From a virus (lineage: Duplodnaviria > Caudoviricetes), in the IMG/VR virus record IMGVR_UViG_3300033076_001145, positions 64,001-128,000 of that record: 64,000 bases of DNA; one strand, written 5' to 3'. Under the pieces are notes generated by a model. The model was not told the DNA's origin and ran no database searches. It saw only the letters and a list, made by a program, of their open reading frames with translations. The stretch's first letter is position 1; each line of letters starts with the position of its first letter. The translations under genes were made by a program, and so were the position numbers. Below, piece by piece: positions 5,614-45,947 of the stretch.

Positions 5614-6447
5614 ATGGACGCAGACAAAGTATTTAAAATTGCAAAAAAGATGTCAGATGACGAATTTGAAGGTTACACACCAACTGAGGTATTTCGTTAT
5701 TTCGTATCAACAAGTGAGGAAACAATAGTTTATGATTTCCTAACACCAAAAGAATTTATTCTATTTTGTTTTTTAGTCCATAGAATTTCTAACAAACTAA
5801 GTGTTACTGATGTAAATAATAATTTTGATAGACTAATTGCATATTCTTATATTGAAATTACTGAATTAGACCCAGAAGTAGAGTGTGAGCATTGTGATGG
5901 TTCAGGTGAAGTGAGTTGTAGTGATTGTAGCGGCAGTGGAAATGAATATTGTGATGAATGTAATGGAAATGGAGGTGTGGATTGTGATGAATGTGATGGT
6001 ACTGGAGAAGATGAAGAAGGTAACACATGTCGAAACTGTGATGGTGATGGTTCCGTTGATTGTAAAGAATGTGGGGGTAGTGGTAGTTTTTCTTGTCAAG
6101 AATGTGGGGGTAGTGGCGAAGAGAAATGTTATAAATGTGACGATGGTTATATAACTAAGGACGGATATTACTCGGCTACTCAGTTTTTTGTAGTAACGAT
6201 AGACCCAAAAATTTTTTCAGATATTGTCTATTATGAAAAAATGGATGTTTTACCTGAATCATTGTTACCGTCAACAAACATTAATTCAATTTTGGTTAAA
6301 CAAGATAATCATTCACCATGTGATGATATTGAAGAAGAAATAGAAACAGGTGATTTATATTTTATAGGTTCAGATACTGATACTAACATATCAATGTATA
6401 AAACACGCAGAGGTATAGATATTGCAACTATAGAAGATATCTGTTAA
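5614..6447 (+). CDS. Protein with tandem DnaJ-type zinc-finger repeats
   Basis: About eight CxxCxGxG units in the middle; no J-domain. Confidence 0.75.
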   Translation: MDADKVFKIAKKMSDDEFEGYTPTEVFRYFVSTSEETIVYDFLTPKEFILFCFLVHRISNKLSVTDVNNNFDRLIAYSYIEITELDPEVECEHCDGSGEVSCSDCSGSGNEYCDECNGNGGVDCDECDGTGEDEEGNTCRNCDGDGSVDCKECGGSGSFSCQECGGSGEEKCYKCDDGYITKDGYYSATQFFVVTIDPKIFSDIVYYEKMDVLPESLLPSTNINSILVKQDNHSPCDDIEEEIETGDLYFIGSDTDTNISMYKTRRGIDIATIEDIC

Positions 6448-36961: not shown

Positions 36962-37651
36962 TTAATTCGTAATTTCATTATAGAACTTACTTAACTTATC
37001 TATATTCATAGTGAATACTTGTCCTTCCTTTTGTGTTTGTGGTTTTACATGTGGGTTTCTCTTTAATGCATATTCATATAGTGTTTTACTATCAGTTCCC
37101 ACATTTATTATTCCTGTCTCCTCTGATAGAGTTAAGTCTTTAATCATCGGGGCAATTATATCCACATAGTCTTTTGAGACCTCTCTGTTATCATATGCAT
37201 ATTCATATGGGTATTCTGTTGACCCGAATGATGTTCGTATGATTAAAGAGTTCCTATAACCTCTTACAGAACATTCTCCACCTAACTTTGTCCATGCGTA
37301 GAAGTTAAACGGATAAATCGGGTCGTTTTCTTTATGGTTCCCACCTTTTGAATCATATACATAATCAGTGGAAATATATACTAACCTTATATTATTCTCT
37401 ATACAGTATTTCGTTACATTTGATACTCCTACTATATTTGTGTTAATTGCATCTATTGGATTATTATCTATATCCACCGAGTTTGTTTTTGCTGCCGCAA
37501 GTAATATAATATCAGGATTGATTATGTTTAACTTGGAGTATAATTCACTCTCCACAGTTATGTCTATCTCACTTCCCGCAAGAATAAAATCCGATATCTT
37601 TTTAAATTCAGAACCAAGTAACCCCGTTCCACCTAACATAAGAACTTTCAT
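36962..37651 (-). CDS. rmlD: dTDP-4-dehydrorhamnose reductase-like SDR
   Basis: GGTGLLG, YISTDYVYD, Y..TKLGGE, IIRTS. Confidence 0.85.
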   Translation of the reverse strand: MKVLMLGGTGLLGSEFKKISDFILAGSEIDITVESELYSKLNIINPDIILLAAAKTNSVDIDNNPIDAINTNIVGVSNVTKYCIENNIRLVYISTDYVYDSKGGNHKENDPIYPFNFYAWTKLGGECSVRGYRNSLIIRTSFGSTEYPYEYAYDNREVSKDYVDIIAPMIKDLTLSEETGIINVGTDSKTLYEYALKRNPHVKPQTQKEGQVFTMNIDKLSKFYNEITN

Positions 37652-38033
37652 ACCCCAATCATAATAATATGTTCTTTAAATAACAAGTTAATTTCGTTAT
37701 ATTTATTATCATATATGGACCCGAGAGTTATTGCTGTTGTTAAACTAATTGAAACATTATACGAACCAAAAGGTATTGAGGCAAATGAAATTAATGATAA
37801 TGGATTTCCTCAGACATTGATTAATGTATATTTTGGGGAGATTGATGACTCATATATTACTAATCCTCAGCACCGTGATTCTAAGTATCTTAAAGAACGA
37901 AATTTTGAATTTGATATAAGAAGGAGTATTCTCGGATACTTAGGTGTTCAAACATCGGGCCTTGACCCTAAAACAGGGTTTTCCCCATATAAAGAAGAAG
38001 ACATAACCATTAATGTAGTATCTGAATTATAAT

Positions 38034-38363
38034 ATGAAATACATAATCAAAGAATCACAAATAAATAATGTTGTATTTTGGTATTTGGATAATCAGGATT
38101 TTATTAAGATTGAAAGGAGTCGTAATATTTATTTTGTTAATTCAGAAGGGGATGAATATGCTCAAATAAGACTTGATAAAGATGATGGCTGGTGTTTTAT
38201 TAATATTAATTTAATTAGAGAAATTTCTTCTTTCTTTTCTTTACAACCTTATGATTCTAAAGAAGTTATCGGCAGATGGGTTGATAATACCCTCCGAATG
38301 AAGGTCACAAACACCCAATATTCAAGAGGTAAAGGCCAGAAAAGGTTGATAATACCCAAATAA
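38034..38363 (+). CDS. Small paralog-family protein ending in a CRISPR-like repeat and spacer
   Basis: MKYIIKESQ...WVDNTLRMKVTNT plus a spacer-derived tail; near-identical to 38379-38696 except the tail. Confidence 0.75.
   Translation: MKYIIKESQINNVVFWYLDNQDFIKIERSRNIYFVNSEGDEYAQIRLDKDDGWCFININLIREISSFFSLQPYDSKEVIGRWVDNTLRMKVTNTQYSRGKGQKRLIIPK
38280..38357. CRISPR. CRISPR-like mini-array (36-nt repeat, 29-nt spacer, truncated repeat)
   Basis: GTTGATAATACCCTCCGAATGAAGGTCACAAACACC, then CAATATTCAAGAGGTAAAGGCCAGAAAAG, then GTTGATAATACCC. Confidence 0.6.
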
Positions 38364-38378
38364 CATATTTATAATAAT

Positions 38379-38696
38379 ATGAAATATCTAATTAAAGAGT
38401 CACAAATAAATAATGTTGTATTTTGGTATTTGGATAATCAGGATTTTATTCAGATTAATAAAGGTAATAAGATATATTTTGTTAATTCGGAGGGTGACGA
38501 ATATGCTCAAATTAGATATGATAAATCAGATGGCTGGTGTTTTATTAATATTAATTTAATTAATGAAATTTCTTCTTTCTTTTCTTTGCAACGCTCTGAT
38601 TCTGAAAAAATTATTGGTAAGTGGGTTGAGAATACCCTCCAAATGAAGGTCACAAACACCGCTTTGTTTGAAAAGTTGTATGATGATTTTGGTTGA
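38379..38696 (+). CDS. Small paralog-family protein ending in a CRISPR-like repeat and spacer
   Basis: MKYLIKESQ...WVENTLQMKVTNT plus a different tail. Confidence 0.75.
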   Translation: MKYLIKESQINNVVFWYLDNQDFIQINKGNKIYFVNSEGDEYAQIRYDKSDGWCFININLINEISSFFSLQRSDSEKIIGKWVENTLQMKVTNTALFEKLYDDFG

Positions 38697-38704
38697 GAAT
38701 ACCC
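38625..38704. CRISPR. CRISPR-like mini-array (36-nt repeat, 31-nt spacer, truncated repeat)
   Basis: GTTGAGAATACCCTCCAAATGAAGGTCACAAACACC, then GCTTTGTTTGAAAAGTTGTATGATGATTTTG, then GTTGAGAATACCC. Confidence 0.6.
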
Positions 38705-38725
38705 AAATAACATATTTATAATAAT

Positions 38726-39390
38726 ATGAAATACATAATCAAAGAATCACAAATTAATTTACTATCTGAGATTGAAAGAAATTGGATGGAAAAAGAATAT
38801 GAAGAAGGGTATAATGACATTAAAGAAATTTTGACATCATTTATTACAGGATTGTTTGATTCGTATGGTGAAATAGGTAATGAGATTGTTATTTATGATG
38901 AAGATAAGGAAGTAATATTTAGTTATATGAAACCAAGTGGTGAGTTATATTACGATTATAGTTTGAATGATTTATACAGTAAGTTATTTCCCCACCCGTT
39001 TTGGTCCGTCCATTCTAAATATGCAATGTCTGATGCGTTTGAACAATCATTCCCATATAAAGTCAATCGAGTAAAAGGTGCTCATATTGTATATCAATGA
39101 ACGAAGAAATGAAAAATATGATATGGAGTTATTTGGATAGTCAGGACTTTCATACCATTGATTATAATGGTAATATCATATTCTTTGAATCGTATGAAAG
39201 TTATAATTCTCGTATTCAAAGTGTTTTAATTAGTATCCACCGCCAAAGTAATGAATGTTATGTTAAACCAAAACTACTTAAAGAAATTGAGTCTTATTTC
39301 AATATCGGATGGGATGAGTCATTACCCTATGTTGGAAGCTGGGTTGTAAATAAAGTCGGATTTAATATCAAAAAATTCTATTTTGATTAA
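38726..39390 (+). CDS. Two further small paralog-family proteins (38726-39100, 39097-39390) without arrays
   Basis: Same MKYIIKESQ leader in the first; the second has YLDSQDF...W(V)VNKVG like 38034. Confidence 0.55.
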
Positions 39391-39396
39391 TAACTT

Positions 39397-41369
39397 CTAT
39401 CTTATGTCGTAGAAGTGTTTTACATTTCTTTTTGAATAACGGTCATTTAAAAAATCCCATAGTTGATTAAATCTGTTTTCATCATCACCACATTCTAATT
39501 CAAAGTTTTCACATACATCTTCTATTAAGTTTGATGTGACAAGATGATTAAATTTATATGGTGTCATTGCATTTAATTGTTTTTTCTTATCTGTGTATCT
39601 TTTTGAAGCCACCTTTAAAACATATTGATATATCTGTTCAAGAGTTTCCATATCTATCCTTCTTTTGAAGTAAATAGGTAGTTCTTTTTCTTCCCTCAAT
39701 ACTGATTCATTAATTACATTTCCCAAATTATCATATTTTAAAAGTTCAGTTTCTATAAAAACATCAGCATTTTTTTTCCTCACATCCCATTCAGTCATCC
39801 AAGTAGGACAAACAACAATATTTCCTGAAGTCCATTTATCAATATCTCTTGATATTTTTGTATCAAACCACGACTCAATGTTTGCCGCAGTATCATCAGA
39901 ATCAAAATAAATTTTAAGTAAAGGTTTATTATTATAAGTTGATTGTTCTATAAATGAAACCTCATCATATAAAACATGAATAATTTGCTTAACAAATTTT
40001 AATTTGTGTCCCTCGGATTCTTCCCTTAATATTCTTCTTATGTTTTCTTGTAGGTTCATATTTCTTCTTCTTTGTATTAACAATCTCCTATACTAACATC
40101 TATAGTATGTCCCCTCACTAAATTATTTCCTAATCTGTGTATAAGGGTGCTTATGTTATATATCGCTTGTCTTGTTTTTTGTTTGTTCACAAAACTATCA
40201 TCAGATAAATTAGGATAATATTTTGGTATTTCCACATATAGTTTTAACGAATGTAGAGTTGGTTTAATTTTAAAATCACATATATTTTCCATATCAGGAA
40301 CATCGAGTCTCATTATTGTATCAACAATGAAAATCATTTCCTTTTGTGTTCCAGTAAAACCAAGAACCTTATATAAATTTTCAACCCCTCCAAACATTTT
40401 TGCGGTTTGGTAAATACCCATATCAGAAACCAAATCTTTAATACTTTCTTGGTCTGAGGTCTCTTCCCTTAATATTGACTCATTTAACGGTTCCTCGTCC
40501 AATTTTGAATTTATGTATTTAATTAATGGCGCATCAAATTTATATACATCTTGGGACATGTTGTAATCTTTTAACAGTTCTTTGTTTGACGAAATAAGAT
40601 TTTGAATTGCGTCATAAAAGGCTTCACTTCTATTCTTTCCCCAACTTAAAGAAATTTTAACATCCCTAACCAACCGCTCAAGTTCATTAGCGGTCACCCT
40701 TCTTCTAATGTAATAAGGTAGTTCAGTTCCTTCCCTTAATATTCTTCTTATGGATTCTTGTAGGTTCATATTATGTATTTGACACTAATTTTTTATATCT
40801 ACTTTTAATTCTATCTTTATAGTAATCTTTTAAACTTTCCATAACCTCACCATACCATTGTGAATCTTCTGGCATTGTACTATATAGTTCGTAATGAATC
40901 CCATCCATTAAAATTGAAATTGTTACATCTATAAACCTATTTAAACTCATAATACTCCCATCTTCTTTATTTGTATTGCGTAACATATTTGATGACATAT
41001 CTAAAGACTCGCTAAACTCCCTCTCTAAATCATTGTTAGGGACTCTACGTCTAATCATCAGGATAGGTTTGGACTCTTCCCTTAGTATTCTTCTTATGGA
41101 TTCTTGCAGGTTCATTTCTTTTTCTTCTTAACACAATTAGGATATTTCTTACCAAACATTGTCTTCATTCCTTTTTGGGTATATCCCGCCCAACACTTTT
41201 CTTGGAGTTCAGATTTATGATTTTCATTTCCACATTTATGACATGTGTATGGGTCGTGTCCGCCTTCAGATAAATTCCAAGACCATCCACACTCCTGACA
41301 AACAATTTTTTTATTTTTGTTATGTAATTCTTCCAATATTATTCTTCTTATGGTCTGTTGTAAATTCAT
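39397..41369 (-). CDS. Four tandem genes with MNLQESIRRILREE leader (39397-40059, 40077-40769, 40771-41115, 41112-41369)
   Basis: Near-identical first 14 codons followed by different bodies; internal NESVLREE / NESILREE repeats. Confidence 0.7.
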
Positions 41370-41430
41370 ATTATTATAAATATCAATTAAAATAAACTGA
41401 AAAAAGTTTTTCAATTTAAGTTTTCTTCCC

Positions 41431-41438
41431 TATATTTG
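41431..41438 (+). promoter_or_regulatory. Bacteroidota-type -7 promoter element immediately before the array-gene operon
   Basis: TATATTTG 4 nt before ATG 41443. Confidence 0.6.
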
Positions 41439-41442
41439 CCTT

Positions 41443-42228
41443 ATGGACAAAGTATTAAAAGATTTCATATTCCAACAACTATATGAAGAATTGAGTAATG
41501 TGGAGATTATTCCATATAACTACTCCATTTGGTTTATTGACCGAAAAAACGAATATTGGTATTTTGAATTTGAAAAGGATGGAATGTTGTGGTGGAGATA
41601 TGGATTCTTTCTCAGTTTTTTTAAAGTGTTCTCCCTTAGTGATACCGATTTTGAACCCATTCTATCCGCTTGGGTGGAAGAGGTCTTAAATCATAAGGTA
41701 TCTACAACAGGTCGGGAGAAACCAAGGCAACTTTTTCTGGTGGAAGAGGTCCTAAATCATAAGGTATCTACAACCCAAACTTGTTCATATGGTTTGCCTG
41801 AGTGGGTGGAAGAGGTCTTAAATCATAAGGTATCTACAACCCACAATTGCCACGATATTCTACCAGCAGTGGTGGAAGAGGTCCTAAATCATAAGGTATC
41901 TGCAACTCGGCATTTTGACAACCGTTCTCATCCGTTGGTGGAAGAGGTCTTAAATCATAAGGTATCTACAACTTCTCTGAATTCAGGCCAAATGATTGGT
42001 ATGGTGGAAGAGGTATTAAATCATAAGGTATCTACAACCCAAGTCAGGGAGAACAAAGAATCGGTCATGGTGGAAGAGGTCCTAAATTATAAGGTATCAA
42101 CAACTGAGGACCGCATTTCTCAAAACCCAAGGAAGGTGGAAGAGGTCTTAAATCATAAGGTATCCTCAACCTACTTCGATTGGGATAAAAAGGTAATTTT
42201 GGTGGAAGAGGTATTAAAACAAAAATAA
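41443..42228 (+). CDS. Array-containing protein 1: about 77-aa aromatic N-domain plus 8 x (VEEVLNHKVSTT + 10 variable aa)
   Basis: Open frame through the whole array; 22-aa period. Confidence 0.85.
   Translation: MDKVLKDFIFQQLYEELSNVEIIPYNYSIWFIDRKNEYWYFEFEKDGMLWWRYGFFLSFFKVFSLSDTDFEPILSAWVEEVLNHKVSTTGREKPRQLFLVEEVLNHKVSTTQTCSYGLPEWVEEVLNHKVSTTHNCHDILPAVVEEVLNHKVSATRHFDNRSHPLVEEVLNHKVSTTSLNSGQMIGMVEEVLNHKVSTTQVRENKESVMVEEVLNYKVSTTEDRISQNPRKVEEVLNHKVSSTYFDWDKKVILVEEVLKQK
41673..42218 (+). CRISPR. CRISPR-like array 1: 8 full repeats plus 1 truncated, 8 unique 30-nt spacers
   Basis: Repeat GGTGGAAGAGGTC(T/C)TAAATCATAAGGTATCTACAAC at 41673, 41739, 41805, 41871, 41937, 42003, 42069, 42135, truncated at 42201. 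Exact 66-nt period. Confidence 0.75.
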
Positions 42229-42229
42229 A

Positions 42230-43081
42230 ATGGATAAAATATTAAAAGATTTTATATATCAACAACTATACGAAGAATTGAGTAATGTGGAGATAATTCC
42301 ACATAAGGATTCCATTTGGTTTATTGACCGAGAAAATGAGTATTGGTATTTTGAATTTGATAAGTCAGGAACATTATGGTGGAGATATCATTTCTTTACC
42401 TCGTTTTTTGAGATGTTCTCTATGAAACGCAATGAGTTTACACCCATTCTGTCCGATTGGGTGGAAGAGGTCCTAAATTATAAGGTATCTACAACGACCT
42501 TGATTAGCAAAGGATGCACGGACGAGGTGGAAGAGGTCCTAAATCATAAGGTAACTACAACAAATTTACATACGACACCTGTCCCTGGTAAGGTGGAAGA
42601 GGTCTTAAATCATAAGGTATCCACAACTTTGTCAGCCAATCTCTTGGCACCTTTAATGGTGGAAGAGGTCCTAAATCATAAGGTATCTACAACACGCTGT
42701 ACGGTAATTTATACAACTTCGCTGGTGGAAGAGGTCTTAAATCATAAGGTATCCACATCCAACGCCAAAGAAATTTTACAAAAGCAAACGGTGGAGGATG
42801 TCCTAAATCATAAGGTATCTACAACAATGGCCATCCAATCTTGCAAAGAGAATTGGGTGGAAGAGGTCTTAAATCATAAGGTAATAGAAACCCAAACAGG
42901 GAACGCACCTCCATTGTCATTTGTGAAGGATGTTTTAGATTATAAAGTAACCAAAACTAAAAGAGATTCATCAGTTGATTGGGTTAATGTGGAAGAGATA
43001 TTAACTCATAAGGTATCCTCAACACAAGGATGGGGAGTTGAGGATTGTCACTTGGTTGGGAAGATATTAAATCAAAAATAA
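42230..43081 (+). CDS. Array-containing protein 2: same N-domain plus 9 repeat/variable units
   Basis: Open frame through the whole array; paralog of 41443-42228. Confidence 0.85.
   Translation: MDKILKDFIYQQLYEELSNVEIIPHKDSIWFIDRENEYWYFEFDKSGTLWWRYHFFTSFFEMFSMKRNEFTPILSDWVEEVLNYKVSTTTLISKGCTDEVEEVLNHKVTTTNLHTTPVPGKVEEVLNHKVSTTLSANLLAPLMVEEVLNHKVSTTRCTVIYTTSLVEEVLNHKVSTSNAKEILQKQTVEDVLNHKVSTTMAIQSCKENWVEEVLNHKVIETQTGNAPPLSFVKDVLDYKVTKTKRDSSVDWVNVEEILTHKVSSTQGWGVEDCHLVGKILNQK
42460..43073 (+). CRISPR. CRISPR-like array 2: 9 repeats plus 1 truncated, 9 unique 30-nt spacers, decaying toward the 3' end
   Basis: Repeats at 42460, 42526, 42592, 42658, 42724, 42790, 42856, 42922 (degenerate), 42988 (degenerate), 43054 (truncated and degenerate). 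Confidence 0.75.
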
Positions 43082-43082
43082 A

Positions 43083-43718
43083 ATGGATAAAATATTAAAA
43101 GATTTTATATATCAACAATTATACGAGGAGTTATCAAATGTGGAAATTATTCATCATGGTAAATCAATATGGTTTATTGATAGGGATAATAAATACTGGT
43201 ACTTTGAGCTTGACACATTTAGTAACACTTTATGGTGGAGGTATGATTTCTTTGTATCGTTTTTCAAGGTATTTTCAATGGATAATGAAAAATTCACTCC
43301 AATTATTGCAAATTGGGTTGCAAATATATTAAGTGGTGATTTTGAAGTGTCGAAAAAAGGTTCGGAATTAATTGATGAGGATGGTGTTATAAATAATATT
43401 CTAAATAATAATGGAGTTACTCTTATACCAGCAAATGATGGTATATTTAATAACAGTAGAGCGGAAATTGTAATCAAATCGGAACCTGCAAGTAGGGATT
43501 GGAAGATAGGTGAAGTATTAAAAACTATATCTAAAACCTCACCTCCTTGGGCCTCTCTTATGGTTAATCAAATATTAAAATCCTCATCATCAGTTACTGT
43601 AAATAAAGTATCCAGCTTAGGGAGTTTCCGACAACAATATCATGTGGATGAGGTATTAAAAACAAAATCGTTGTCATACTATCCTGATAGTGTAATAGAT
43701 TCGGTATTAAATAAATAA
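43083..43718 (+). CDS. Third paralog with the same N-domain and an eroded repeat region
   Basis: First about 75 aa match 42230. Remnants include WVANILS, IGEVLKT, MVNQILK..NKVSS, VDEVLKTK and IDSVLNK. Confidence 0.75.
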   Translation: MDKILKDFIYQQLYEELSNVEIIHHGKSIWFIDRDNKYWYFELDTFSNTLWWRYDFFVSFFKVFSMDNEKFTPIIANWVANILSGDFEVSKKGSELIDEDGVINNILNNNGVTLIPANDGIFNNSRAEIVIKSEPASRDWKIGEVLKTISKTSPPWASLMVNQILKSSSSVTVNKVSSLGSFRQQYHVDEVLKTKSLSYYPDSVIDSVLNK

Positions 43719-43723
43719 AGTAA

Positions 43724-45947
43724 TTAACGACATTCCCTCTGATAAGTATTCTTTAAGTGCTCGGTGAATTTTTTACTAGCATAATCCACCATTAACTTAT
43801 AAGACTCTCCCCACTCAACAGTATTTTCATCCATATCGGAGAAGAAGTCCCAATACATAGATGTTATGGCTTTTTCAATTACCGTTTCAACATATTGTTC
43901 CTTTGACAATCCACAAACATTATATTGAACTTTAACTTCTTTAATTGCAAAATCAATCTGCCAATCAATTGCGTGTAGTCTTCTTTTAACACTATTTGGG
44001 ACCTCTGTTGATTCTTTTAATACTCTCTTTATGGATTCTCTGAGTTTCATATTATTATAAATATATTTATATTTATTAAATTATGAAGGATGACAATCAA
44101 TTAGAGGAACTTGTATTTGCATATCTTAATGCTCAGGACTTTGAAATTATCCATAAAGAAGGTTATCATAAATACGCATACTTTGTTTATGACAAGGATG
44201 ACGCTCACGCTCAGATAATGTATCACAAAACCTTTGTTGTGATTTCTAAAGAGTTGTCGGATGAAATTAATTCTTATTTCAATGTTCCTTCAGGTGATAA
44301 CGCATCAGTTGAAATTAAAAATTGGATTGAGTCAAAGTTAAACACTAAAATTGATATTTGGGATGTTAAAATATATGGTGGAATGATGGGCGATGCCTGG
44401 TTATCTGTTAATGAGGATTAAAATATCATATCTTCATCCATTTTATCCTGAATATCTTGTTGAGCAATAGGTAATAGTTCATTCATAATGATGTCATATA
44501 CACCTGGTAAATAAACTTCATCATACCAACTAAACAACTCTTCAACACTATCAAATCTTGTTTTGTCTTGTAACACTTTGAAATAGTCTCCTTCCCCAGC
44601 GATTTCAACAACTACCTGTTTACCAATTTTTCTACTTCTATCCTCCAAAGAAAACCAATCAATTTCAACAGGTGTATAATCAAGTCCATCCCAAAATGGT
44701 GTGGCCATTGCCGTAATAAGTTCAGTATAATTAGGGAGAAATTCTCCCGTTTTAATCTCACCATCCCAATAAAAAATACCATCCAAATTTGTTTGTATAT
44801 TAAATTCATTGTAGGTATCTTTCAATTTACCTTTTTCTAAATTTTCAATTAATAATTCGTTCGCAATTTTTGAATTGATTTCAATTTTTGAAAGTTTGAC
44901 TAATTGTGTCGTACTAACACCAAGGTATTTTTTTGCTTCATATATACCAACCTCGTCAATTAGTTCAAGAATAGAATTTTGAAATTTATCTTCAGAATCT
45001 TCTCTTAATATTTTTCTTATGTTATCCCTTAGATTCATATCATTATAAATACCACTTAAAATGAAAACCCCACTGAGTAGCGAATTCAATGGGGTTAATG
45101 TAGCCTAAACTACAGCGGTCCTAAGCCCACTTTCTTTAATCATAATCTTTTAAATTATACTTATCAATTATCTGTTGGAATATTTGATTTCTATATGTTT
45201 TTGCTAATGTTTCTCTTTTTGGTATAAAAGAATATCCAAATCCCGAACTTCCACTCATTCCTACGACTCTCCAAACAACTCTTCCGTCTACGTAATTAAC
45301 TTTTCGTAATCTAGCATCAAAAGAATATTGCATGTCATTTTTCCTACCAAATTTAAACTTACCTAATTTTTTTTCATCTTTACCAAAATCCTCCAAATTT
45401 AAGTGTTGGACAAGATTGTCATCAAAATACATATTAACCTCATTACCTTCTCTAATATAATAAGGTCCAACATTTTCATTTTTGTAAAATTCCTTTAGGT
45501 TTCCACCATAAACCATTTTTATGTAGTTTGAGACACTACCAAACATTCTTTCAATCTGATACCAACCTATTTCATTATAAAGACCTTTTAAGTCGTTATC
45601 TGACGGCTCTTCAGTTTCTTCTTTTAATATTTTCTTAATTAAATCTTTCATTAAAAAAATATAAAAATTTTATTTGGTAATATACTATGTTTCTTTTGAA
45701 AGTATTTTTTCAAATATACCTCGTTATCGTCGTTGGTCATTTTTCTTATTTGTCTCAAAAACTCGTATTCAACCCATGTATTGTAGTTTATTTCACTAAC
45801 TTCAAACACAGTATTACCATTACTATCCTGAAACTTAATTTTGTCAGGAAACAATACTTGTTTTAACTCACCGTATTCATCTTCAACAAACATGTCAATT
45901 AAATTGACCATAGCTTCTTCAATATGTTTCTCTTTTGACTCACTCAT
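43724..45947. CDS. Cluster of hypothetical paralog-family genes (43724-44050 -, 44083-44421 +, 44418-45038 -, 45136-45651 -, 45651-45947 -)
   Basis: IKRVLKE / IRKILRE / IKKILKEE leaders; 44083 resembles 38034 (YLNAQDF..YFV...AQI...WIESKL). Confidence 0.55.

Follow-up and report, generated by a model that had tools for sequence, protein, structure and literature searches.

An uncultured giant lake phage is represented in IMG/VR by a linear record of 208,634 bp (IMGVR_UViG_3300033076_001145; 32% GC, CheckV completeness 71%). The stretch analyzed here, referred to as the window, comprises bases 64001-128000 of this record (64,000 nucleotides) and contains two small genes with 3′ repeat-spacer units in the style of CRISPR. 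Gene 1 and gene 2 share 86% nucleotide identity over 290 nt and 81% amino acid identity. The original prediction described two near-identical genes whose 3′ ends consist of a 36-nt repeat, then a spacer of 29 or 31 nt and finally a shortened repeat copy; this layout and its coordinates were confirmed (Table 1). In both genes the full repeat is followed by a unique spacer and then by the first 13 nt of the repeat, downstream of which a conserved AT-rich stretch extends up to the next gene. Matches expected by chance for the 36-nt repeat, judged from shuffled sequence, amount to 0.00. Base 6 of the repeat is T in gene 1 and G in gene 2, in the full as well as the truncated copy of each gene, and this covariation fits a copy-and-recombine history inside each array. 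Since the truncated copy is out of frame in both genes, its peptide is not the reason for its being there.

Table 1. Positions of the repeat-spacer genes and their parts in the window
Feature	Position	Strand	Description
Gene 1 (P0001, 109 aa)	38034-38363	+	open reading frame (ORF), translation; small alpha/beta domain, last helix enters the repeat, then spacer-encoded tail
Gene 1 full repeat, 36 nt, 12 codons	38280-38315	+	2 mismatches to the gene 2 copy
Spacer B1, 29 nt	38316-38344	+	segment of bacterial glmS; glmS sense strand, frame other than that of glmS
Gene 1 truncated terminal repeat, 13 nt	38345-38357	+	translated in a shifted frame; gene 1 stop codon follows (to 38363)
Gene 2 (P0002, 105 aa), paralogue of gene 1	38379-38696	+	ORF, translation, AlphaFold2 model
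Gene 2 full repeat, 36 nt, family consensus	38625-38660	+	exact
Spacer B2, 31 nt	38661-38691	+	segment of a 968-aa bacterial ORF; sense strand
Gene 2 truncated terminal repeat, 13 nt	38692-38704	+	out of frame after the 31-nt spacer; TGA at 38694-38696
Sister family, two genes with 8- and 10-repeat arrays, period 66	41443-43081	+	open in frame throughout

The AlphaFold2 model of the gene 2 protein has a mean pLDDT (predicted local distance difference test) of 81.7 and consists of a small alpha/beta domain, with values below 50 for the tail residues 95-105. According to this model the first five repeat codons complete the last helix of the domain, and the spacer-encoded tail is predicted to be disordered. 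Neither protein matched a family in Pfam and PHROG searches. Foldseek found no PDB structure with an E-value of 0.001 or better for the gene 2 model, and an exhaustive VIA search gave a non-specific best Z of 4.6, that is, no known fold.

The repeat-spacer gene family in this and related phages

Six further units lie on the minus strand at 152-159 kb of the phage genome, outside the window, which makes 8 spacers of this family in the phage. One array (genome positions 155564-155714) holds two identical full repeats with spacers of 31 and 29 nt. Its second repeat is out of frame with the gene, so the repeat is kept as DNA and not as a peptide. The exact 36-mer of gene 2 occurs in two more copies in this genome and in four IMG/VR contigs, and exact or near copies are found in IMG/VR contigs of related jumbo phages. 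Across these phages the near-identical direct repeats measure 36 nt, arrays hold one to four spacers (up to five repeats), and the 27 distinct spacers are 29 nt (11), 30 nt (7) or 31 nt (9) long. One array, at locus L032 of a complete phage genome of 293,850 bp, contains four spacers of 31, 30, 30 and 30 nt. A truncated or degenerate repeat is gene-distal in every array. The original prediction of one spacer per array thus holds within the window and fails in the family, where the array at 155564-155714 has two spacers and that of L032 has four.

A protein search with a family member returned 1675 homologue clusters in metagenomes. Among the best 120 of these, 106 carried the repeat peptide, with 98 different tails, and 21 contained two or three in-frame units. 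The survey of homologous genes proposed with the original prediction therefore uncovered variable rather than conserved tails, as well as multi-spacer versions. The repeat was not found in the representative bacterial genomes of 185,579 species, which argues that it is not simply a host array carried by the phage.

Origin of the spacers

Sequence searches with the two spacers, as suggested with the original prediction, revealed what its author could not see: B1 and B2 are captured host DNA. B1 matches the metagenome contig L055 (34.7 kb, 44.6% GC) at 29 of 29 positions with no repeat adjoining. This protospacer lies inside an ORF with GATase (glutamine-amidotransferase) and SIS domains, namely glmS, and B1 was also found with one or two mismatches in five genomes of one Flavobacteriales family. 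B2 matches a 968-aa ORF of a Flavobacteriales genome (G056, locus L072) at 30 of 31 positions. In a sister-phage contig (L110), a gene identical to gene 2 at 316 of 318 nt carries a spacer that matches the host at 31 of 31 positions, from which it follows that the window copy of B2 has drifted by one base since capture.

Two spacers from outside the window match G006, a metagenome-assembled genome (MAG) of an uncultured Flavobacteriales bacterium (2.7 Mb, sampled loci about 42% GC), exactly over 31 of 31 positions. We define the host family as the family of G006, which is represented by 236 species genomes in the collection. One more outside spacer is exact over 29 of 29 positions in G040 and G033. 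Altogether, five of the eight spacers of this phage match one bacterial family; with two candidates scored per genome, the other three were unmatched. Two spacers of the L032 array match G068 of the same family, and three spacers of a further phage (L010) had no match in a sample of 111 genomes. The host sites comprise glmS, an alpha-L-fucosidase, an M28 peptidase, an FG-GAP protein, a HepT-like RNase and an intergenic site near recO, whose functions are unrelated. Since these protospacers belong to ordinary, conserved genes of the chromosome, the DNA passed from host to phage. For the family of genes 1 and 2, three spacers are sense to host genes, three are antisense and one is intergenic.

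The 208 kb of the phage itself contain no match to any of its 25 spacers, and at least 12 match genomes of the host family. Spacers of the sister arrays at 41-43 kb had no match in five related phage genomes.

Reading frame and variable tails

Once inserted, a spacer would be translated into 9-10 essentially random residues that form a new C-terminus. What follows depends on spacer length. A 30-nt spacer leaves the frame open into the unit behind it, a 31-nt spacer brings a TGA into frame at the start of the next repeat (gene 2), and a 29-nt spacer is followed by five or six fixed residues before translation stops (gene 1). Each of the three frames meets a stop within the truncated repeat and the bases downstream of it. 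The idea that the reading frame governs spacer accumulation, already part of the original prediction, agrees with this arrangement: spacers of 29 or 31 nt end at stops in the next repeat and those of 30 nt are read on. In L032, a 31-nt first spacer is followed by three silent in-frame 30-nt units, as though the newest insertion had cut off an array that was once translated.

Among 23 distinct first spacers only two have an in-frame stop, both within the last two codons, compared with 5-12 of 23 in the other five frames and with 34% of random host 30-mers in a given frame. Tails of at most 9 aa occur in 13 of the 106 homologues with the repeat peptide (among the best 120 of 1675). The tail composition of 86 distinct P0002 homologues is near that of random host-DNA translation (chi-square 61.5, 19 degrees of freedom), with cysteine four-fold down and tyrosine two-fold up relative to random stop-free host translations. 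Given the depletion of stops, the few short tails and the near-random composition with its lack of cysteine, we conclude that the tail is translated and that it is subject to weak filtering at the protein level.

The sister family at 41-43 kb had been predicted to share the architecture of genes 1 and 2, and this was borne out: the N-terminal domain is homologous, the repeat peptides parallel each other as described and are homologous, and the reverse complement of the gene 1/gene 2 repeat again matched the 41-kb repeat at 21 of 36 positions upon recalculation. Both families also have the same host family as spacer source, the same weak flanking motif and apparently the same polarity. They differ in that the sister genes have 8-10 repeats and exclusively 30-nt, stop-free spacers, whereas the gene 1/gene 2 family has one to four units with spacers of 29, 30 or 31 nt. 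In the latter family the majority of insertions consequently terminate the protein, and the deficit of stops is no more than about three-fold. In the sister family, 158 of 158 spacers are exactly 30 nt long, and 68 distinct spacers contain no stop in the reading frame and 62 and 23 stops in the other two frames. Sister spacers are antisense to host genes in 6 of 6 cases in the window (41674-43054) and in 6 of 9 in another phage (L020), 12 to 3 in total. This antisense lean is not explained by a stop-free filter, which should favor sense, in-frame captures. By eye, tails of the sister family have no shortage of cysteine.

Probable route of integration

Several features point to integration by Cas1-Cas2: the inserts are 29-31 bp long, each comes with a duplicate of the 36-bp repeat, the distal repeat is degenerate, and there is a weak flanking motif. 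Cas1, the only cas family searched for in the phages, was absent from five phage genomes of the group, of which two are complete. Among the 236 genomes of the host family, 16 encode Cas1. Among these genomes, G006, the source of two exact protospacers, encodes cas9 (RuvC and HNH, 1182 aa), cas1 and cas2 at a contig end. Because the phages tested lack Cas1 and some genomes of the host family have cas9-cas1-cas2, the spacers would most likely enter through a host integrase acting in trans, the likeliest candidate being a cas9-linked type II Cas1-Cas2. A precedent comes from Flavobacterium columnare, in which a cas1-less VI-B array is filled in trans by the II-C Cas1-Cas2 and acquires many spacers from the chromosome of the bacterium itself (Hoikkala et al. 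2021, PMC8092290).

The repeats linked to host cas1 (L102, L103, L105, L106, L109) measure 36-47 nt, end in CACAAC and are separated by 29-30-nt spacers; the features they have in common with the phage repeats are mainly the termini. As a separate observation, the last 9 nt of one host repeat (G086) are the same as those of the sister-family repeat of related phages. Directly 3′ of the protospacers, AA was found in 9 of 22 cases against a background of 10% (p = 1.6e-4), in a similar proportion in both families, and T occupies position -2 in 12 of 22. The protospacer-adjacent motif (PAM) of F. columnare is absent from the flanks of the protospacers. Polarity could be read from two protein pairs, P0013/P0033 and P0099/P0121; in each of them the additional unit sits closer to the gene than the shared unit, which fits a role of the gene body as leader.

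In the proposed sequence of events, the gene body upstream of the 12 repeat codons would have the role of leader. During infection of a Flavobacteriales cell, an integrase would insert 29-31-bp pieces of the host chromosome at the gene-proximal repeat and thereby duplicate the repeat. Units behind a frame-breaking spacer would be silent and later be lost through repeat-repeat recombination, which would keep the arrays short.

Likeness of the repeat to type VI-B repeats

The repeat was compared by ungapped identity counts with the 36-nt repeats of F. columnare and F. branchiophilum, which we take to be of type VI-B, the class of Cas13b (PMC8092290). In these two species 36-nt repeats alternate with 29-30-nt spacers (PMC5395568). 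On the plus strand the phage repeat matches them at 22 and 22 of 36 positions and as the reverse complement at 23 and 25 of 36; II-C and V-A repeats gave only 9-15. The chance of reaching at least 22 among the phage's own 36-mers is at most 4e-4. As RNA, the plus strand of the repeat folds with -2.5 kcal/mol (z +0.6), no better than shuffled sequences, and the reverse complement with -6.9 kcal/mol, with a 6-bp hairpin at the VI-B position and no terminal stem, compared with -10.9 and -12.2 kcal/mol (z -2.5 and -3.7) for true VI-B repeats. An Rfam search of the repeat, including the CRISPR-DR families, gave no match, and a search for the VI-B-style array pattern in the 236 genomes of the host family yielded only chance-like matches.

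The repeat therefore agrees with the VI-B class in length and sequence but not in RNA fold (GUUG/CAAC paired ends, hairpin) or strand bias. Of the earlier claim of a Cas13b-like repeat, the sequence likeness of 22-25 of 36 stands and the structural likeness does not, given the weak fold on the coding strand. A complete lack of similarity to cas-linked arrays was likewise not found, as the repeat resembles Bacteroidota type VI-B repeats.

Neighboring genes and other similarities

In the sister-phage contig L110 (ENA ERZ27257036) the gene 2 orthologue stands right after the orthologue of 37715-38032, and gene 1 is absent when compared with 37715-38726 of the window. Tandem paralogues come and go as whole genes. 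Two further paralogues, at 39097-39390 and 44083-44421, have the same domain and a looser terminal-helix motif but lack a repeat-spacer unit. A coding motif native to the family appears to have given rise to the repeat.

A comparison of window positions 37000-44000 with INPHARED gave a single cyanophage-like match of about 90 nt. It lies at about 41118-41211 on the minus strand and has 78-86% identity to hypothetical genes of T4-like cyanophages (S-CAM22, S-SRM01, P-TIM68 and others). Outside the window, 743 nt at genome positions 153098-153843 (L060) are 93% identical to contig C52 of the bacterial genome G051, and a piece of L060 of about 35 nt (query 5933-5965) recurs at 87-94% in many genomes of the family of G051. 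The L060 stretch may be a shared mobile or RNA gene.

Discussion

Two small genes of an uncultured giant phage end in repeat-spacer units whose spacers come from the chromosome of Flavobacteriales bacteria and whose reading frame is depleted of stops. We consider it probable that these units are genuine products of CRISPR-type integration of host DNA that are translated as variable protein tails. As a tentative extension, it is possible that the phage employs spacer insertion by a CRISPR integrase as a generator of protein diversity. Each insertion would then yield a new C-terminal peptide from host DNA, the spacer length of 29, 30 or 31 nt would pick among three built-in endings, and the tail itself would be under selection, for example for escape from a host defense or for a changed binding partner. 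The family of genes 1 and 2 would represent the single-slot form of the multi-slot arrays at 41-43 kb.

Several observations weigh against the reading of the units as CRISPR-type integration products that are translated. Not one of the 25 spacers could be traced to phage DNA, though phage DNA should abound in an infected cell. To explain this, phage DNA would have to be excluded as substrate, or else self-matching spacers would have to be selected against; such selection would hint at a guide function. Cas1 was seen in only 16 of the 236 genomes of the host family, and an array with a repeat like that of the phage in none of them. MAGs often lose arrays. The host repeats linked to cas1 are, termini aside, unlike the phage repeat, and the polarity of insertion is based on two protein pairs. 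Conservation of the repeat at synonymous sites between genes (0.74) lies within the range of the upstream coding sequence (0.63-0.80) and indicates no extra constraint at the DNA level. Furthermore, the depletion of stops is about three-fold and not absolute, and it could stem from a need for ribosomes to reach the end of the gene rather than from a function of the tail.

If the units were working guide arrays, their processed CRISPR RNAs would load Cas13b or another Cas protein of the host and be aimed at host genes, a role that has been put forward for orphan arrays of huge phages, with translation being incidental. Spacers that match the host chromosome and never phage DNA would be expected if self-matching spacers were lethal, and the likeness of the repeat to VI-B repeats at 22-25 of 36 positions, the 6-bp hairpin of its reverse complement at the VI-B position and the antisense lean of 12 to 3 in the small sample of sister-family spacers point in the same direction, as do the cas1-less arrays of huge phages with host-like repeats and host-targeting spacers (PMC7162821). 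However, the spacers of the gene 1/gene 2 family are split into three sense, three antisense and one intergenic, whichever strand is read, and nothing unites the targets (glmS, fucosidase, M28 peptidase, FG-GAP protein, HepT). The coding-strand repeat folds with -2.5 kcal/mol as opposed to -10.9 and -12.2 for true VI-B repeats, no VI-B-type array was detected in the 236 genomes of the host family and no CRISPR-DR match in Rfam, the drifted spacer B2 has been retained, and the stop depletion of the reading frame is left unexplained. Cas13 has collateral activity, and Cas13b activated on host mRNA would be expected to stall the very cell that the phage needs. We thus regard guide arrays as unlikely. 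A related proposal is an RNA decoy in the manner of RNA anti-CRISPRs (Racrs), in which the repeat in phage mRNA soaks up a Cas protein of the host and the spacers are filler. The repeat does resemble a CRISPR repeat class of the host lineage and is present in each genome at least 8 times, to which the sister arrays add 18 repeats, and Racrs exist for most CRISPR types (PMC10651486). A decoy would need no spacers, still less a turnover of host-derived ones, the structure of the repeat RNA is weak, and the depletion of stops and cysteine in the tails indicates an effect at the protein level. Besides, Racrs occur as single non-coding repeats that have promoters of their own, and no example was found for type VI (PMC10651486). 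We consider a decoy very improbable. The alternative of the original prediction, that mini-arrays guide or decoy a host Cas13b, is therefore disfavored by the ordinary nature of the matched host genes, the 3:3 strand ratio, the weak fold and the lack of VI-B arrays in 236 genomes.

No CRISPR enzyme would be involved at all if the genes formed a variable-tail family with a 3′ recombination point, or if a phage-encoded enzyme other than Cas1 pasted host fragments. This would agree with the lack of Cas1 in the phages and in most genomes of the host family, with a repeat peptide motif that is native to the family and also present in the array-less paralogues at 39097-39390 and 44083-44421, and with a repeat that evolves like coding sequence. 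On the other hand, inserts of 29-31 bp, a duplicated 36-bp repeat, a degenerate distal repeat and the flanking motif constitute a Cas1-Cas2 signature, the units match the VI-B class of the host's order in sequence as well as in the lengths of repeat and spacer, and homologous recombination cannot make inserts that share nothing with the phage. An origin free of CRISPR enzymes consequently appears quite unlikely. Integration of host DNA by a CRISPR enzyme, followed by translation, is the reading we prefer.

Among known systems, the VI-B arrays of Flavobacterium are similar in having a 36-nt repeat with 22-25 of 36 positions alike, spacers of about 30 nt, no cas1/cas2 of their own (for the phage only Cas1 was searched), spacers from the host chromosome and a degenerate distal repeat (PMC8092290, PMC5395568). 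In contrast, the phage units lie inside a protein gene, are translated and hold only one to four spacers, the phage repeat RNA lacks a strong terminal stem and hairpin on the coding strand, its spacers have no bias towards complementarity to mRNA, and the flanking motif differs from the F. columnare PAM. The orphan arrays of huge phages are compact, lack Cas1, Cas2 or Cas4 and often have no effector (Al-Shayeb et al. 2020, PMC7162821). Large phage size, the lack of Cas1, repeats like those of the host lineage and, in part, spacers from the host chromosome are shared with our units. Those arrays have been described as non-coding guides, whereas here the repeat is the end of an ORF, the spacer its tail and the frame depleted of stops, and the units are spread over many paralogous genes. 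Viral mini-arrays and solitary repeats also place one or two host-like repeats on a virus (PMC7099407, PMC10651486), here likewise without Cas1. The spacers of mini-arrays are directed against rival viruses (PMC7099407), whereas those reported here match bacteria. Racrs are spacer-less non-coding RNAs with no example for type VI (PMC10651486), unlike the phage repeat, which forms part of an ORF and precedes a spacer and another repeat copy. A generic CRISPR array is non-coding and located beside cas genes; here the repeat forms the last 12 codons of an ORF. Diversity-generating retroelements (DGRs) mutate adenines by means of a reverse transcriptase and a template repeat. Phage DGRs may be seen as a functional analogy only, namely in that a dedicated process at the DNA level alters a short C-terminal stretch of a phage protein; in our case whole foreign pieces of 29-31 bp are inserted between repeats.

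Cas1-less phage arrays with host-like repeats and some host-matching spacers (PMC7162821) as well as viral mini-arrays and repeat mimics (PMC7099407, PMC10651486), the latter for every CRISPR type except VI (PMC10651486), are thus already known. Our literature search turned up no account of a protein gene that ends in such a repeat and whose tail is encoded by spacers. To the sister arrays the gene 1/gene 2 family adds a one-slot form, frame-breaking spacers of 29 and 31 nt with built-in stops, silent distal units, drift after capture and the scale of a large family.

If our interpretation is correct, immunity is not the only product of CRISPR adaptation: it would also bring about a natural insertional mutagenesis, tolerated by the phage or exploited as a source of protein variation. 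This would be relevant to the conflict between phage and host and could serve as a recording or diversification tool. It would also mean that integrases can use repeats far from the host's own, which bears on the origin of new CRISPR arrays. The family is abundant (1675 protein clusters) and simple (one repeat, one spacer), and because its tails can be traced to the exact host locus, they provide base-level links between uncultured jumbo phages and their Flavobacteriales hosts.

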